A stretch of 63,907 bases of DNA, the filler included, from Diploschistes diacapsis (lineage: Eukaryota): NCBI GenBank assembly GCA_023645945.1. It is 21 parts of 21 records of this genome, joined end to end, with 100 filler letters (N's around TTAATTAATTAA, not from the genome) between each part and the next. Parts side by side here need not be neighbours in the genome. Positions count along the whole stretch, not along the records: positions 1 to 1,198 come from JALAIB010003642.1; 20 more parts are not named here. The stretch is one strand, 5' to 3'. This document shows positions 1 through 63,907 of this stretch, piece by piece. Made by a program: the position numbers and the translations under genes. How positions within the stretch are numbered: position 1 is the stretch's first letter; the number at the start of each line of letters is the position of its first letter. Under the pieces are notes generated by a model, which saw only the letters and a list, made by a program, of their open reading frames with translations, had not been told where the DNA came from and searched no databases.

Positions 1-1082
1 ATATCTCGAATTAATATATTCGGACATTCTATTATAATAGACCTTCTATTTCGAATTAAATAATACAAACGAATACGAAGTCGAAAAGATATTGGATTAT
101 GGTTTTAGAGGATTCCTCGTTAAGTGGAAAGGATACCCCTAGAACCAGAATATATGGGAATTGAGCGGGGATCTGGGAAATTATAATTAAAAGGTTAAGG
201 CTTACGAAAGATAAAAAAGGAAGTGACTTTAGTGGGGGTCAAATTTATTATTTTCGTAACGTGTTTTAGAGGTATTGGGACTAGGCTAAACGTATTTAAA
301 ATTAAAGATATACGACGTTTTAGCCGTTGAGTTATGAAATTTCTAATAAAAGAAAACACGTATAAATAAGTTTTTATATTTTAAACCGAATAACTTCCTT
401 TTGCGTCGTTGGCAGCGCATTATTCCTTAGTATCCAGTTTAGGCGAGCCGGCGATATCGCGGTTAGCTCCGATAACTCTAAATCAAATTCCGTAGGTAAC
501 TTTTTTAGGCGTTAATGTATGTTTCGGACGATTTTAGGTCCAATTTTTCGTTAAATACCGTGTTTATACGTCGGTACGATCTTCTGTTAACTTCAAAATC
601 TTTCGATTATGACGAATACGGCTACGTTAAAGACGACGATCCTTAATTTAATATAATTGTTTCTTTAATTTTTTTTCTCGCTCAGTATTCGAGTTAACGA
701 GCTTTTTATTTTTCTCGACCTCGTCTCTTTTAAAAACAATGTTTTATTTAATTATCTTTGAAATAATAGATATATAGTCTTTTTTACCCGATTTAGTATA
801 GCGAGCGTATTTAATAGAAATTAAAGGTATCTTAATATAATCGTGAGAAAATAGATAGTCAAAATAAGGTAATGTGTCCTAATATTCTTGAAGACGAATA
901 ATACAATTTAGGCGTTTCTTTTATTTAGAAGAAAAAGAAGATATCGTTATTTCACGAATTAAGATTTCTTTTTGCTTAGTATTTATATTTATTTTCCGGA
1001 ATTTATCGGGCCGATAAGGTTGAAAAAAAGGGATAGTATTACGATCTAAGTATTAGACTTAACACGTTTTAATTATTTCTTG
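1..1082 (+). mobile_element. RIP-degraded 3' end of a Ty3/Gypsy chromovirus: chromodomain, ~800-bp extra region, polypurine tract, start of 3' LTR
   Basis: About 50-210 reads NEYEVEKILDYGFRGFLVKWKGYP*NQNIWE (chromodomain). PPT-like GAAAAAAAGGGATAG at 1022-1036 is followed by TATTACGATC (RIP form of TGTTACGATC, the LTR start also seen at 3103). Confidence 0.85.
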
Positions 1083-1084
1083 TA

Positions 1085-1198
1085 ACGTGTTTCACGGGGG
1101 TTCCGGCCACCCCCAGATTCCGGCTATTTCAAATGATTATTTTCATCTTATATTCGATCTTTCTCAACAATACCTACCTTTCATGATAATAAATCGAT
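1085..1198 (+). mobile_element. pogo/Fot1-like DNA transposon left end (TIR) inserted at TA
   Basis: TA followed by ACGTGTTTCACGGGGGTTCCGGCCACCCCCAGATTCCGGC; the same terminus leads into a transposase remnant at 34605. Confidence 0.85.
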
Positions 1199-4582: not shown

Positions 4583-5092
4583 TAGGCTGGCCGTTTCGTG
4601 CCACGGTCACTGACACGGACACTGCAGCAAAAATTTTCAAAACACGGACACTGACACGGACACGACAGCTAAAATTTTAAAACACGGATACTAACACGGA
4701 CACTACACTACAATAAAAACACGGACACGGACATTATAATTAAAAATTTTTAAATATTGATACTAATACGGACATTACACTTCCGTAAATCCATCGGAAT
4801 ATTACGATAAATCTATCGAAACACCGCGATGAAATTTTTTTAAAAAAATAAAAGCGTAAGAAATAAACGTAATAATTCTAGAATTATTAAAATTAAAAAA
4901 ATATTTTAAAATGTTTCGGTGAATGCACGGACACGAATATCGTAATATAAAAATTTTCGACACGGACACTAACACGGATATTATATTATAATAAAAGCAC
5001 GGACACGGACACTGTAATTAAAAATTTTAAAACACTGATATTAATACGGACACTGCACTTTTATGAATCCACGGACACGGACACTGTAGGTA
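4583..5092 (-). mobile_element. Partial MITE family A
   Basis: Starts TAGGCTGGCCGTTTCGTGCCACGG, followed by ACACGG/ACACTG arrays. Confidence 0.9.
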
Positions 5093-6488: not shown

Positions 6489-6634
6489 ATAAATAATCGT
6501 TGATATTAAATTCTATTAAAATCGAATTATTATTATGCGAAGTAGTCATTATTAAGAAAGATCGAATATAAGATGAAAATAGTGATTTAAGGTGGCCGGA
6601 ATCTGGGGATGGCCGGAATCCCCGTGAAACACGT
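6489..6634 (-). mobile_element. pogo/Fot1-like terminus (TIR) followed by TA
   Basis: ...GGCCGGAATCCCCGTGAAACACGT then TA; reverse complement of the 1085 and 34605 ends. Confidence 0.85.
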
Positions 6635-7259
6635 TATAACTTCTATTTTTGAATCAGCCCATTTTAGGGTTTTATGATTCAGATTCTGGGCTTTTAGATT
6701 TCTTCGATTTAATCTACGTTAAATAACGTAATCGGTACCCGCGTTCGTAATCATAATAACTACCGAGAGACGTAGTTTTAATAAACGATAAACGTAATAA
6801 AATAAATATTAATCCGGGTTTATAACCTATTTAACAACGTAATGGATATATTTAAGTTTAGAAGTCTTATATAGAAGGTTATTCTACTTTATAGACTTTT
6901 ATTCTCGTGGGATACGCTAAGCTTTACTATTTATACTATTCCTTATTCGGTCTAGTTAGAATTCTAGAAAGTTCAGCTGAACTCCGAGGTTTAGTTCAGC
7001 TGAACTGAATCTCTTTCTGGAACTCAGTTGTACTCCCAGCCATGCCTTCTGCCTGTCTGCTCAACAGCGCGATATAATATAAGCTCGCTAAAAGAATTCA
7101 GAAAAATGATTATTACAACAAAAAACAAGAAACAAGAAAAAAAAAAGAATCCTGAGACATTCTTGACAAGAAAGACAAAAATAAGCGCGCTTATAATACA
7201 GAAAGTTCAGACGATAAAAGTTTAAAAAATTTAAAATCTAAACCTGAATCTGAACCTTA

Positions 7260-30087: not shown

Positions 30088-30594
30088 AAATTTTTTAATT
30101 GCGGTGTCCGTGTCCGTGAATTTACGGAAATATAATGTCCGTGTTAGTATCCGTGTTTTAAATTTTTAATTATAATGTCCGTGTTAATATCCGTATCGAA
30201 AATTTTTTTATTACGGTATCCGTGTCCGTGCATTTATCGAAACATTTTTAAATATTTTTTAATTTTAATAATTCTGGAATTATCACGTTTATTCCTTACG
30301 CTTTTATTTTTTTAAAAAAATTACACCGTAATATTTCGGTAGATTCATTATAATATTTCGATAGATTCACCGTAATATTTCGGTAGATTTACTATAATGT
30401 AATATCCGTGTCAGTATTAATGTTTTAGATTTTTTAATTGCGGTATCCGTGTCCGTGAATTTACGGAAATGTAGTGTCCGTGTTAGTATCCGTGTTTTAA
30501 ATTTTTAATTGTAGTGTCCGTGTCAGTGTCCGTGTTTTGAAAATTTTTGCTGCAGTGTCCGTGTCAGTAACCGTGGCACGAAACGGCCAGCCTA
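30088..30594 (+). mobile_element. Partial MITE family A (right end)
   Basis: Ends CCGTGGCACGAAACGGCCAGCCTA. Confidence 0.9.
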
Positions 30595-31877: not shown

Positions 31878-32490
31878 TAGGCTGGCCATCACTGACACTG
31901 ACAGTGTTAATGTCCGTGTTTTAGATTTTTTAGCTGCGGTGTCCGTGTCCGTGGATTCACGGAAGTGCAGTATCCGTATTAATATCAATATTTAAAATTT
32001 TTTAATTATAGTGTCCGTGTCCGTGCTTTCACTATAATACAATATCCGTATCAATATTCGTACCGAAAAAATTTTTATTACGATATCCGTATCCGTGTTT
32101 TTATTATAATACAGTATCCGTATTAATATCCGTGCCGAGAAAATTTTAATTACGGTATCCGTATCCGTGTTTCTATTATAATGCAATATCCGTGTTAATG
32201 TTCGTGCCGAGAAAATTTTAATTACCGTATCCGTATCCGTGCTTTTATTATAATATAATATCCGTATTAATATCCGTGCTAAGAAAATTTTAATTATAAT
32301 ATCCGTATCCGTGCTTTTATTATAATATAATATCCGTATCAATATCCGTGCCGAGAAAATTTTAATTACGATATCCGTATTCGTAAATATATTACGATAT
32401 AATATCCGTGTCAATATCCGTACCGAAAGATATTTAACTATAATATCCTTATCCGTGAATATATTACGATAATATAGTGTCCGTGTTTAT
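31878..32490 (+). mobile_element. MITE family A variant with an expanded 69-bp internal tandem array
   Basis: Starts TAGGCTGGCCATCACTGACAC; about six consecutive 69-bp units, seen as the 23-aa period of spurious ORF 31992-32414. Confidence 0.85.
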
Positions 32491-32674: not shown

Positions 32675-33867
32675 GGGTTAAAAGCGAACCTTATATCGAA
32701 ATAAAAGTTATATAAAGCAGATTTACGGGGAAGTGTTGATCAAGATAGCTTGTATTTATATAATAACGAAGGACGGATCATTCTTATATACAAGAAGAAG
32801 AATAGAAGCTATTATATAAGCAAGATTATTAAAGGAGAACATGTATATGTTGCAAAAACATACCTAATAAAAATAACTGAACCTGAATTGAACCCAAAAA
32901 TTCAGCTGAACAAAATCAATTATTAATTATAGCATGCACGTATTGCCTATATGGGACCTAAAAGGCTTTAGTATCTCCATAAAATAATAACGTTTACTAA
33001 TCCGATCCGAGTTATACCATATATCTATAAAATATACCAACTAGGCTGGCCGTCACTGACACTGACACGGCCGTGTTAGTGACACGAATACTGACAGTGT
33101 TAATGTCCGTGTTTTAGATTTTTTAGTTACGGTATCCGTGTCCGTGGATTCACGGAAATATAGTATCCGTATTAGTGTTAATATTTTAAAATTTTTAATT
33201 GCAGTGTCCGTGTCCGTGCTTTTAATATAGTGCAGTGTCCGTGTTAGTGTCCGTATCGAAAAATTTTTTATTACGGTGTCCGTGTCCGTGCATTTACCGA
33301 AACACTTTAAATTATTTTTTTAATTTTAATAATTCTGGAATTATCACGTTTATTTCTCACGCTTTTATTTTTTTAAAAAAATTTCATTACGGTGTTTCGG
33401 TGGATTCACCGCAGTGTTTCGATGGATTCACGGAAATATAGTATCCGTGTCAGTATCAATATTTTAAAATTTTTATTATAGTGTCCGTGTCCGTGCTTTT
33501 ACTGCAGTGCAGTATCCGTGTTAGTGTCCGTGTTTTAAAATTTTAGCTGTCGTGTCCGTGTCAGTGACCGTGGCACGAAACGGCCAGCCTAATACCAACT
33601 GATCAAAACCAGGTAGCAGATAAATCATATATTCGTTAAGTATAAGTATGGTTTACTAAACTTAATAAACATCGACATCTAAGGTCCATTTTTAAAGTCT
33701 ATTAAGAACAATTAATACTTTATAGAAATCGTAAATAACTACTCGCGCAAAATCTGGTCTATCCTATACAAAACCCGAAAAGAAGCCGTTCGCATTATAC
33801 AGCACTAAAAGGTGAACGTGAAGCTTTAAAATAATAAACAACTTAAAGTAATACGTCTCGACAATAC
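32675..33867 (+). mobile_element. RIP-degraded Ty1/Copia pol (pre-integrase HHCC and integrase core), interrupted by a MITE
   Basis: HARIAYMGPKRL before the insert; LLNLINIDI*GPF...YFIEIVNNYSRKIWSI after it. Confidence 0.85.
33042..33591 (+). mobile_element. Complete 550-bp non-autonomous hAT-type element (MITE family A)
   Basis: 12-bp TIRs TAGGCTGGCCGT / ACGGCCAGCCTA; perfect 8-bp TSD ATACCAAC at 33034-33041 and 33592-33599. Confidence 0.93.
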
Positions 33868-34479: not shown

Positions 34480-34604
34480 ACGTGTTTGACGGGGATTCCG
34501 GCCACTTTTGCCAAGAAATAGTTTAAATCTTCAATAATTCTTCGAAATTAATCGTTATTTTATTTTTTTTCAGAATATTACTTTTTAATCACTTATCTAA
34601 CATA
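34480..34604 (+). mobile_element. Left end of the long-TIR pogo-like family, interrupted at TA by the next element
   Basis: TA then ACGTGTTTGACGGGGATTCCGGCCACTTTTGCCAAGAAATA; matches 63739-63880. Confidence 0.8.
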
Positions 34605-35160
34605 ACGTGTTTGACGGTGAGTCCGGCCACCCCCAGAATCCGGCCACCTCAAATCACTATTTTCATCTTATATTCGATTTTTCTTAACAATAACTACCTC
34701 GCATCGCAATAATTCGATTTTAATAAAATTTAATATTAACGACTGTTTATAGGTCCTAAAATTACAATAATATATCAACATTCGAGAAACTACCCGCGCA
34801 TTTAAAGTATCTCGATCGATCATTATAGATCGACTTAATGGAGCTTAATCATGCTCTAATAATTACGAAACGACTTAAATCCTTTCAAATTTAAAAGAAA
34901 AAATATTAATACGATACATTATACGTTTTATATAAATTAGCTTTTTTATATCGTCTGCGTTAATAATAGATATAATCGAAAAGATTTAACGCGAACGCAT
35001 TCGATTCGGTTCGAATTTAAAAATCATAATCGCGAATCTTTAATTTATCGATAAATATTAAATATCGCGATTTCGTAAACGATTTTTTAAAATTATTAAT
35101 ATCTAAATAAAATAAACCGAGTTTAATAAATTTAATATAATAGATTAGGAGGCTATATAA
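34605..35160 (+). mobile_element. 5' part of an autonomous-type pogo/Fot1 element (TIR plus RIP-degraded HTH-psq/CENP-B region)
   Basis: TIR ACGTGTTTGACGG, then IRETTRAFKVSRSIIIDRLNG...ILSNLKEKILIRYIIRL. A reverse copy lies at 41719-41953. Confidence 0.85.
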
Positions 35161-37912: not shown

Positions 37913-38319
37913 TAGGCTGGCCGTTCCGTGCCACTGACACTGACACTGACACCGCAGCAAAAATTCTCTCGACACTGACACTGACACTGACACTACACTA
38001 CAGTGAAAGCACGGACACGGACACTACAACTAAAAAATCTAAAATATTGACACTAATACTAACACTATATTACAGTGAAAGCACGGATACGGATATCGCA
38101 ATTAAAAAATCTATTATATTAATATTAACACTAATATTATATTTCCGTAAATCCACTAACATTAATATTAATACTATAATGAATTCACCGGAACACCGCA
38201 GTGAAATTTTTTTTTAAAAACAAAAACGTGAAAAATAGACGTGATAATTCTAGAATTATTAAAAAAAAAAGTGTTTCGATAAATGCACGGACACGGACAT
38301 TACATTTCCGTGAATCTAT
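37913..38319 (-). mobile_element. Partial MITE family A interrupted by an LTR retrotransposon
   Basis: Starts TAGGCTGGCCGTTCCGTGCCAC; (ACACTG)n run. Confidence 0.88.
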
Positions 38320-40458: not shown

Positions 40459-40852
40459 TAGGCTAACCGTCACGGACACTGACACGGCCGTGGCAGTATC
40501 CGTATTTTAAAATTTTTAGCCGTAATGTCCGTATTAATAGATTTACTACAGTGCAGTATCCGTGTTAATATCAATATTTTAAATTTTTTAATTATAGTGT
40601 CCGTGTCCGTGCTTTTACTATAATATAATATCCGTGTCAATGTCCGTGCCGAGAAAATTTTAATTACGATATCTATATCCGTGTTTTTATTATAATATAA
40701 TATCCGTGTTAATGTTCGTGTCGAGAAATTTTTTGCTGCAATATCTGTGTCCGTGCTTTTATTATAATATAATGTCCGTGTTAATGTCCGTGCCGAGAAA
40801 ATTTTTGCTGCGGTATCTATGTCAGTATCCGTGGCACGAAACGGCCAGCCTA
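40459..40852 (+). mobile_element. 394-bp MITE family A copy with both TIRs and no recognisable TSD
   Basis: TAGGCTAACCGT (RIP form) ... ACGGCCAGCCTA; the 8-bp flanks CTAAGAAG and ATTTTATA differ. Confidence 0.88.
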
Positions 40853-41718: not shown

Positions 41719-41953
41719 ATTAAATCGATCTATAATAATCGATCGAGATATTTTAAATACGCGGGTAGTTTCTCGAATATTAATATATTATTATAATTTT
41801 AAGGTCTGTAAATAGTCGTTAATATTAAATTTTATTAAAATCGAATTATTATTATGCGAGGTAGTTATTGTTGAGAAAGACCGAATGTAAGATGAAAATA
41901 ATGTTTTGAGGTGGCCGGAATCTGGCGGTGGCCGGAATCCCTGTGAAACACGT
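41719..41953 (-). mobile_element. pogo/Fot1 5' end (copy of the 34605 family)
   Basis: Reverse complement of ~34605-34840; ends GTGAAACACGT then TA. Confidence 0.88.
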
Positions 41954-43009
41954 TATAAAAAGATTTTAAACTTTATGATAAAATACTGAATAACAATTAT
42001 TAAACGCTCGAGCGTTACAAAATGTAAGGCCAAGCATGGAGGACGCCAAGGATGCCAAGAGTCGTAAAAGCGGCGCTCAGGGTCTTGGCTGGCTGGTACA
42101 TGAAGGGGGGATCTTATTTTTTTACTCTCTTTACTTCTCTAGTAGTTAGTCCTGTCAGGAGTCTATCCTGCGTATAACCATCTTGATATATTATCGTATG
42201 TTTTTTATAGTCTTAATTACCTTACTATTCTTAAAAACGATGATCCGATAAGATAACACGTTTTCGCTACGTATACGCGTAATCATATCGCAATAATCAT
42301 TTTGTAACAGATGCCTGTGACAGTCCGCAGCATAAGCGAGAGACATCCACCCTAGTGCCGCGCCAAGGCTGCAGGCCCACATAAGAGGAGTTTTCGGGAA
42401 AAGTTTCCTACTTTCTTTTTTAGAAATTAGTTTATGAATATTATGAATATTATGATTATAGTATTATATATTATTTTTTATAGTTCTAATCTCGCCTTCT
42501 TCAGTGGAGCAGTGGTTTGGTAGCATGGCGAGAAGAAAGCGAAAGGCCACGATTGTATCTCGAGATACTAAAAAACCGTGTATAAGGCGATAAATTTTAG
42601 AAAGATTAGTAATCGCAGATTTAACGGATATCGTTGTTTTATCTCGACGGGAATTATTAATATATGACGAGATATTAACGGAATCTGTACGGTCAGTAGC
42701 CATAGATGCTTCGCGAAGAAAAAAGTTGTGACGAACTGGACACGTCGTTGATGTATTATTGACACGAGATCATCAGTATATTTGAACTCGCCAATAATAT
42801 AACAGTATTAACTTATTATCAGTAAATAATTAATACGTGATTAACTCCTCGTTAACACATCGAATTAATCGAGTTAATAAAAACTATTAACGTTCTTTAA
42901 CCATTATATNNNNNNNNNNNNNNNNNNNNNNNNNNNNNNNNNNNNNNNNNNNNTTAATTAATTAANNNNNNNNNNNNNNNNNNNNNNNNNNNNNNNNNNN
43001 NNNNNNNNN

Positions 43010-63642: not shown

Positions 63643-63738
63643 ACCAAGAATTATTGGTTATTATAGAAACTTTTAAATATTAAAGATATTATTTAGAAAA
63701 CGTCCTATATATTATCGAAATTTTTACGAACCATAATA

Positions 63739-63907
63739 ACGTGTTTCACGGGGATTCCGGCCACCCCCAGATTCCGGCCACTTTTGTTAAGAAATAGTTA
63801 AATCTTCAATAATTCTTCGAAATTAATCGTTATTTTTATTTTTTTTTTCAAAATATTACTTTTCAATCAATTATCTATCATATGTAAAAGGTGCACATTG
63901 ATTGCGT
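63739..63907 (+). mobile_element. Left end of the long-TIR pogo-like foldback family
   Basis: TA then ACGTGTTTCACGGGGATTCCGGCCACCCCCAGATTCCGGCCACTTTTG; the distal part matches the arm starting at 8311. Confidence 0.85.

Follow-up and report, generated by a model that had tools for sequence, protein, structure and literature searches.

The window analyzed here, a stretch of 63,907 nucleotides from the genome of Diploschistes diacapsis, is assembled from short contigs, with N spacers and a TTAATTAATTAA linker between them, and neighboring pieces need not adjoin in the genome. The remnant of an antisense gene was found on a 1,198-bp contig (G000:C2938) at the beginning of the window. This stretch is almost certainly what RIP has left of a genuine third gene, dead in this copy, of a chromodomain Gypsy family; the gene lies antisense between pol and the polypurine tract (PPT) and 3' LTR and encodes about 183 amino acids: a basic N-terminal helix, a six-cysteine cluster, a helix of about 85 residues, and an acidic tail. 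The features of the window copy are as follows.

1..214, plus strand: 3' end of Gypsy pol (integrase C terminus and chromodomain, PF00385; stop codon at 212-214), RIP mutated
215..390, no strand: spacer from the pol stop to the antisense-gene tail, longer than its counterpart in most copies and mostly not common to them
374..944, minus strand: remnant of the antisense accessory gene, type A; family length 183 codons, 3' end uncertain (about 374-400)
867..944, minus strand: predicted basic N-terminal helix, codons 1-26 (helix 4-19 in the P0001 model)
774..866, minus strand: putative six-cysteine cluster, C-x2-C-x5-C-x9-C-x2-C-x7-C, with all six positions Tyr here and Cys in copies and intact homologues
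546..773, minus strand: predicted long coiled-coil helix (helix 62-148 in the P0001 model), with a conserved motif at about 575-615
945..1002, minus strand: 5' leader of the antisense gene, common to most gene types (43 of 46 leaders form one cluster)
1003..1017, no strand: conserved palindrome, core TCGG-G-CCGA, just before the PPT (46 loci)
~1022..1036, plus strand: PPT, a purine run adjoining the LTR start in copies
1037..1080, plus strand: first 44 bp of the 3' LTR, interrupted by another repeat
1081..1198, plus strand: a different repeat, beginning with TGTAAC, which replaces the remaining LTR up to the contig end (four more copies in the window)

The host element is a chromodomain Ty3/Gypsy retrotransposon, known here from loci of 1 to 3 kb that comprise an integrase-chromodomain pol end, a PPT, and a TG...CA LTR. 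Pfam matched Chromo (PF00385) at 74-211 of the window copy (E = 9.5e-9), and at a sister locus, L007, Integrase_H2C2 lies upstream of Chromo in one frame. The full LTR in sister copies is about 455 bp long (TGTTA...TAACA), with differing flanks. Copies from the genome match window positions 1-161 and 420-1060 with the gap between unaligned, and the spacer at 215..390 has only short pieces in common with four loci.

The repeat that begins with TGTAAC is probably an LTR nested in the Gypsy LTR; its further copies lie at 6521-6636, 34603-34718, 41840-41955, and 63737-63778. On the next contig, positions 1645-1823 hold a second, shortened copy of the same element end in the opposite orientation, comprising the PPT, the palindrome, the leader, and about 26 initial codons of a type C gene. 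This copy shows 79 to 81% DNA identity to loci L054 and L058 and is broken at about 1823 by other sequence. AT-rich parts of the window also contain a dispersed family of 72-bp tandem repeats (2705-2905, 4602-5088, 30396-30575, 32000-32457, 33112-33302, 37978-38143, and 40604-40823); at 31992-32486, the repeat has one open frame, corresponding to a 24-residue repeat.

As the initial annotation had claimed, the minus strand of the window copy reads in one frame through six tyrosine codons (864-866, 855-857, 837-839, 807-809, 798-800, and 774-776), and the spacing on rereading was again 2-5-9-2-7. The region is RIP-like in composition, with a TpA/ApT ratio of 1.12 and a (CpA+TpG)/(ApC+GpT) ratio of 0.48. 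The accessible part of PMC3017866 confirms the rule that RIP changes CpA/TpG to TpA. By chance, a zinc-cluster-like spacing of Tyr or Cys codons arose in 7 of 2,000 dinucleotide shuffles of 420-945, and three further stretches of the window, together about 18 kb and mostly AT rich, had no such pattern.

The proposal that these tyrosines are cysteines changed by RIP is borne out by other copies in the genome. A DNA search in which 40 of 168 candidates were scored gave at least 52 matches, while a protein search gave 79, of which 78 contained stops and the remaining one was a 36-residue piece. Six duplicates were removed from 45 sequences, leaving an alignment of 39 distinct loci that includes the window copy. 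Cysteine codons were present at every site, in 3/38, 7/39, 14/39, 10/39, 10/39, and 24/39 of the aligned loci, respectively, with a maximum of four Cys sites in any single copy. Two control tyrosine codons in the same frame, at 884 and 653, had no cysteine counterpart in 29 other copies. A tyrosine codon at 557 is Cys in 7 of 29 copies and corresponds to a seventh cysteine in the helix of intact homologues.

The start ATG at 944 was present in 10 of 36 copies and the stop at codon 184 in all 23 of 23. Stops made up at least 25% of 10 alignment columns; in 9 of these, at least one copy has a sense codon from which the stop differs by C>T or G>A, and the tenth is codon 184. This stop-codon test is weak alone, because one plus-strand frame also shows a single unexplained column. 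Three deletions set the window copy apart from all 29 others: 3 nt after 622, 1 nt after 545, and 1 nt after 498. The window copy is therefore dead, carrying RIP stops as well as one 3-nt and two 1-nt deletions. The frame first drawn at 420-945 is a real antisense frame with its start at 944, but because of these deletions the single reading frame departs from the family frame below about 546.

Selection on the antisense frame was measured by counting transversions, because RIP makes only transitions. Across codons 1-135 of type A, 24 of 91 distinct transversions were synonymous versus 11.6% expected (p = 8e-5; omega, ~0.37) in this test, which is approximate and ignores the tree; the other five frames gave p values of at least 0.12. 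For type B, omega was 0.30, and one opposite-strand frame sharing third positions scored alike. The pol end, used as a control, gave an omega of 0.34, and no frame of the LTR control fell below a p value of 0.034. These data show that the antisense frame is under purifying selection as strong as that on pol; within types, selection was purifying and not positive. The gene is found in many copies with constraint like that of pol, there being 39 type A loci among copies that were collected by matching the antisense region itself. Codons 1-135 contain 14 indels, mostly of 1 to 2 nt and each private to one copy. Among the nine type B copies, the six sites are Cys in 7, 8, 6, 3, 5, and 7 of 9.

A HMMER scan with 17 Cys-rich copies as the query against 1.84 billion proteins found intact relatives. 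There were 17 hits at E ≤ 0.001, and the best (E = 5e-40) was P0001, an intact protein of 183 residues whose cysteine spacing is identical to that of the window family. P0018 is closer still, with 40 to 58% identity to the mutated copies. Further searches brought the total to 40 proteins, 19 of them with all six cysteines. The 2-5-9-2-7 spacing occurs in the intact proteins P0001, P0002, P0005, P0012, P0016, and P0018; among the 19, spacings of 2-6-10-2-6 (11/19) and 2-6-11-2-6 (1/19) conform to the Zn2Cys6 consensus. None of the 40 proteins carries an accession or an informative name. Their ESM Atlas neighbors are ascomycete clusters, one of which is automatically named "Zn(2)-C6 fungal-type domain-containing protein" at 0.91. 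A word-indexed homologue search with the RIP-mutated alignment returned no homologue, whereas the full HMMER scan did find them, and a Pfam scan of the mutated copies gave nothing meaningful. Seven of 20 hits lie on contigs of 6.1 to 7.6 kb, about the size of an element, which is only a hint at an element context for the intact homologues. Viral contigs gave no pattern match, and none of 82 pattern matches in metagenome contigs was confirmed. A single locus from a second metagenome scan, L099, was discarded: the match falls by chance on the reverse strand of a bacterial-type gene, and no pol lies near it. The central proposal of the initial annotation, an antisense gene with six cysteines and a long helix placed between the chromodomain and the 3' LTR and masked by RIP, is thus supported by genomic copies, selection, and intact homologues.

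The homologues share further characteristics. The N-terminal helix has a net charge of +2 to +6 in 14 of 14 six-Cys homologues, and most full-length members have acidic tails. The most conserved motif of the family, R-x-R-K-V-L-K-x-A-x-x-R, lies in the long helix (window ~575-615) and forms invariant alignment columns. One clade (P0015, P0019, P0020, P0022, and P0031-P0040) has KRKR-type basic patches at the N terminus and/or after the helix, which we take to resemble nuclear localization signals.

The fungal Zn2Cys6 consensus is C-x2-C-x6-C-x5-12-C-x2-C-x6-8-C. The zinc-cluster spacing originally proposed is near this consensus but does not conform to it, since the Cys2-Cys3 spacer of the window subfamily (2-5-9-2-7) is 5 residues, one below. 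A profile-profile comparison with Zn2Cys6 gave a probability of 71.7%. The best score against Pfam Zn_clus was 12.2 bits (P0027) compared with a gathering cutoff of 21 bits, P0001 and P0018 gave no row, and most members did not outscore Cys-preserving shuffles when compared with a host Zn2Cys6 profile. In structure searches with a model of the short homologue P0024 (pLDDT, 85.5), 22 of 25 Foldseek rows were Zn2Cys6 proteins, none significant singly (best E, 0.16; rmsd, 2.9 over 42 columns); 1cld and 6gys_B are among the Zn2Cys6 proteins. With the same model, VIA placed Leu3 first (Z, 3.7; rmsd, 7.4 over 66 residues). Long helices dominated the fold search with the full-length model, in which the best Foldseek row was again Leu3 (E = 7.8), and a sequence search of the PDB found only coiled coils, at E values of at least 0.37. 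The fold ranking suggests that the six cysteines probably form a Zn2Cys6-like binuclear cluster. The protein resembles the Zn2Cys6 family (PF00172; Gal4, Leu3, Hap1, Put3, Ppr1, and Pho7) in its six near-canonical cysteines, in the top fold ranks, and in having a cluster followed by a predicted dimerizing helix. Another fungal six-Cys domain, DUF3716 (PF12511), weakly matched one homologue, P0027 (E = 0.024; 15 bits versus a cutoff of 22), and had no match at E ≤ 0.1 for 18 of the 19 members.

The family was also compared with 29 Zn2Cys6 domains extracted from 30 host loci. Between Cys2 and Cys3, Lys or Arg occurs 116 times in the 29 host domains versus 5 times in the 19 homologues. A proline precedes Cys4 in 29/29 host domains and 0/19 homologues, and in 19/19 homologues this position is Lys or Arg. 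In host Zn2Cys6 domains, the basic Cys2-Cys3 residues and the proline serve CGG reading. Judged by sequence, the DNA-reading residues of Gal4-type regulators are absent from the antisense protein family.

The P0001 model contains one helix spanning residues 62-148 (pLDDT, 93 to 98). Homodimer prediction gave a score of 0.47 (best of three controls, 0.00), with runs agreeing in at least 95% of contacts and pLDDT of at least 82; in the calibration, 17 of 29 eukaryotic homodimers attained the mark for a dimer and 0 of 30 single chains did, but of the eukaryotic dimers that had no older solved relative, just 1 of 7 did so, and runs that include zinc are not covered. The pass may also stem from likeness to solved coiled coils. 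In the predicted dimer, the helices are antiparallel, with residue 76 facing 111 and 93 facing 93, the clusters lie at opposite ends, and the interface brings residues 24-33 together with 113-128. We read these contacts as each cluster meeting the conserved basic motif of its partner in the model, which would explain why R-x-R-K-V-L-K-x-A-x-x-R is the most conserved motif. On balance, the models favor an antiparallel homodimer, rod-shaped and about 10 nm long, in which both ends carry a cluster set against the conserved basic motif of the partner. The coiled coil of Gal4 is short and parallel, and the ~85-residue helix of the antisense protein differs from it in being predicted antiparallel.

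A distant homologue used as the query gave 26 matches in the genome, and the best 15 loci, together with two from the protein search, represent 16 contigs. The gene lies antisense downstream of Gypsy pol, which the initial annotation had proposed to check in hits: the pol end was found tail to tail on the other strand in 12 of these 16 further contigs, and the other 4 have just 53 to 261 nt of flank. Six types can be told apart among the 54 loci with sufficient sequence (38, 9, 3, 2, 1, and 1 loci); they differ by at least 0.246 transversions per site in DNA and encode proteins that are 26 to 33% identical. For 16 of 18 copies tested, an intact protein of a different sample gave a higher score than did any of the other types in this genome; for the two type D copies, type B outscored an intact protein.

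The pol ends are far less divergent. Across 17 loci of types A to D (types E and F, like several other loci, lacked sufficient pol sequence for inclusion), the transversion distance was 0.029 between types and 0.022 within types, a slight excess between types (permutation p = 0.009). L007 (type A) and L054 (type C) differ by 0.007 over 576 nt. The window copy has a slightly distant pol variant (0.035 to 0.058), and L052 is more distant, with 43.5% amino acid identity. In AU tests, one clade per type was not rejected for type A (0.127) or type B (0.205) carriers. Pairwise alignments between types end near the pol end and restart around the start codon. LTR variants are likewise common across types, with L016 (type A) and L057 (type B) at a transversion distance of 0.018 over 551 nt of leader and LTR. 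Since types with about 26 to 33% identity sit on near-identical pol ends in the four testable types, the gene is very probably a swappable cassette in this genome, with six divergent types, a largely shared leader, and one pol backbone where this could be tested. Homogenization of pol could give the same pattern as gene swapping. On the contig that carries one type B copy, L047, positions 11-190 hold a second antisense-gene fragment of a D-like type.

The palindrome, which contains an inverted CGG repeat, lies about 60 nt upstream of the start codon, between it and the PPT, in 46 loci (L015 and L062 plus 44 others). In its arms, positions 4 and 7 are T-A in 46/46 loci, and position 8 is of C-G type in 35 and A-T in 10. 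The outer arms thus come in two variants that differ by compensating changes, including a transversion pair from C-G to A-T, so that the symmetry is kept. The palindrome could be a protein site or an RNA hairpin. A type-specific binding site within it was ruled out, because arm type does not follow gene type. About 90 to 130 nt into the LTRs (L011, L008, and others), a self-complementary TATATATA box is followed by a GTCACGTGAC-like palindrome; together they are a candidate for a bidirectional promoter that would serve the antisense gene. The possibility that the antisense leader contains an intron was dropped, as no copy has a donor site.

Our best guess for the function, which we hold tentatively and which is the weakest step of the account, is that the protein acts in the nucleus as an adaptor with two ends, on the side of the element against host silencing. 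It would be made from an antisense transcript that starts in or near the 3' LTR. By attaching to a silencing or chromatin factor of the host, to nucleic acid of the element, or to both, it would help the element withstand host control. Such binding would use the composite basic surface and not a Gal4-style readout of CGG, and conflict of this kind would have left its trace in the deep allelic diversity and the swapping. The "anti-silencing factor" of the initial annotation may apply and would fit the cassette polymorphism. A fuller history is possible but doubtful. In it, an ascomycete Gypsy lineage would have taken a Zn2Cys6 scaffold, lost the recognition helix, and built from the scaffold an antiparallel adaptor with two ends, directed against host silencing or against rival elements. 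Ancient interchangeable alleles would be kept on one gag-pol backbone, as in an arms race of retroviral accessory genes, and RIP would hide the gene in most genomes.

The initial annotation had also suggested a regulator. A self-encoded, sequence-specific transcription factor that works in the Gal4 manner, binding its own LTR or the CGG-N-CCG palindrome to activate or repress, is an unlikely alternative even though the Zn2Cys6-like fold ranking, the canonical 2-6-10-2-6 spacing of 11/19 six-Cys homologues, the acidic tails of most full-length members, the Atlas cluster named Zn(2)-C6 at 0.91, and the conserved inverted CGG repeat ~60 nt upstream of the start codon all speak for it. A plain Gal4-type DNA-binding regulator is disfavored by the absence of a Pfam Zn_clus match at the cutoff, of the basic recognition helix between Cys2 and Cys3, and of the proline before Cys4. 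The predicted dimer, antiparallel with its clusters at opposite ends, argues in the same direction, as does the independence of LTR type and palindrome arm type from gene type (L016 versus L057).

Rather unlikely, too, is an accessory role in replication, in which the rod would bridge or escort element nucleic acid (in export or packaging of genomic RNA, or at cDNA ends) in a role like that of retroviral Rev or Cer1 CERV. The basic surfaces at both ends of the predicted rod, the constraint equal to that on pol, and the fixed position in the family would suit such a role. A core partner should coevolve with pol, however, yet types of ~30% identity sit on near-identical pol ends, and to our knowledge many fungal chromoviruses are without such an antisense gene. 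An element-versus-element or selfish system, with the types as specificity groups for copy number control or exclusion or with the protein as a toxin/antidote-like addiction factor, is more improbable still. It would accord with several old allelic lineages being kept on one backbone and exchanged as a module, but no second gene or type-specific cis site was found, and the leader and the palindrome core are common across types. Finally, the reading that there is no functional gene, only a chance frame or a passively carried fragment of a captured host gene, might appeal to the stops in 78 of 79 matches, the small indels, and a stop-codon test that alone does not single out the antisense frame, but it is largely refuted by purifying selection in two types, by intact homologues of matching length and spacing, and by protein-level searches of the genome that returned no stop-free full-length host copy, and is very improbable.

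For the antisense gene, whichever of these functions it serves, a defined family with intact members, a predicted fold, and a predicted dimer brings the role of antisense ORFs (aORFs) within reach of laboratory tests. Conflict, either with the host or among elements, is what the cassette polymorphism points to, and each type would be expected to have partners of its own. In ascomycete annotations, some of the small hypothetical proteins labeled "Zn(2)-C6" may then belong to transposons and not be transcription factors of the host.

Fungal LTR retrotransposons are usually described as gag-pol only. An exception is brtn, which was reportedly described by Zhao et al. in 2011. In the accessible parts of the papers that cite it, brtn is the antisense gene of Boty-like (BcGypsy1) elements of Botrytis cinerea and Sclerotinia (PMC8365987, PMC7264820, and PMC4227169), and the length of BcGypsy1 is given as 6,428 bp (PMC8365987). 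According to those parts, it too belongs to a fungal chromodomain Gypsy element, where it is the single additional gene, antisense and placed between pol and the 3' LTR. Compared by description and not by sequence, it differs in that the same parts mention no cysteine cluster, coiled coil, or allelic types. It is the sole fungal antisense gene that we found cited, and no function is stated in those parts. BRTN may be a member of the same family, perhaps one already described as cysteine rich. The words "antisense" and "zinc" are absent from the accessible part of PMC3248453. A literature search by title or abstract start, which left most subscription papers outside its reach, found no zinc-cluster aORF gene in fungal Gypsy elements. 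The class of gene is already known by position; what appears new, within the searchable literature, is the domain makeup, the lost recognition helix, and the cassette polymorphism.

That class has been reviewed as antisense ORFs between pol and the 3' LTR, with the Boty elements of Botrytis and Sclerotinia included and the function given as unknown (PMC7264820). Its plant members, termed aORF-3R, are gene23 of maize Grande and the genes of rice RIRE2, Silene Retand, and PvRetro13; the domains named for aORFs are SMC-like and transposase-28 (PMC7264820). Plant aORFs occur in most copies and are conserved like pol, and a nuclear location is reported for GENE23 (PMC7264820). The plant genes belong to other hosts and element lineages, and the review names no six-Cys cluster among them. 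By description rather than by sequence, the fungal gene shares with aORF-3R its position and orientation, its presence in many copies, and its pol-like conservation.
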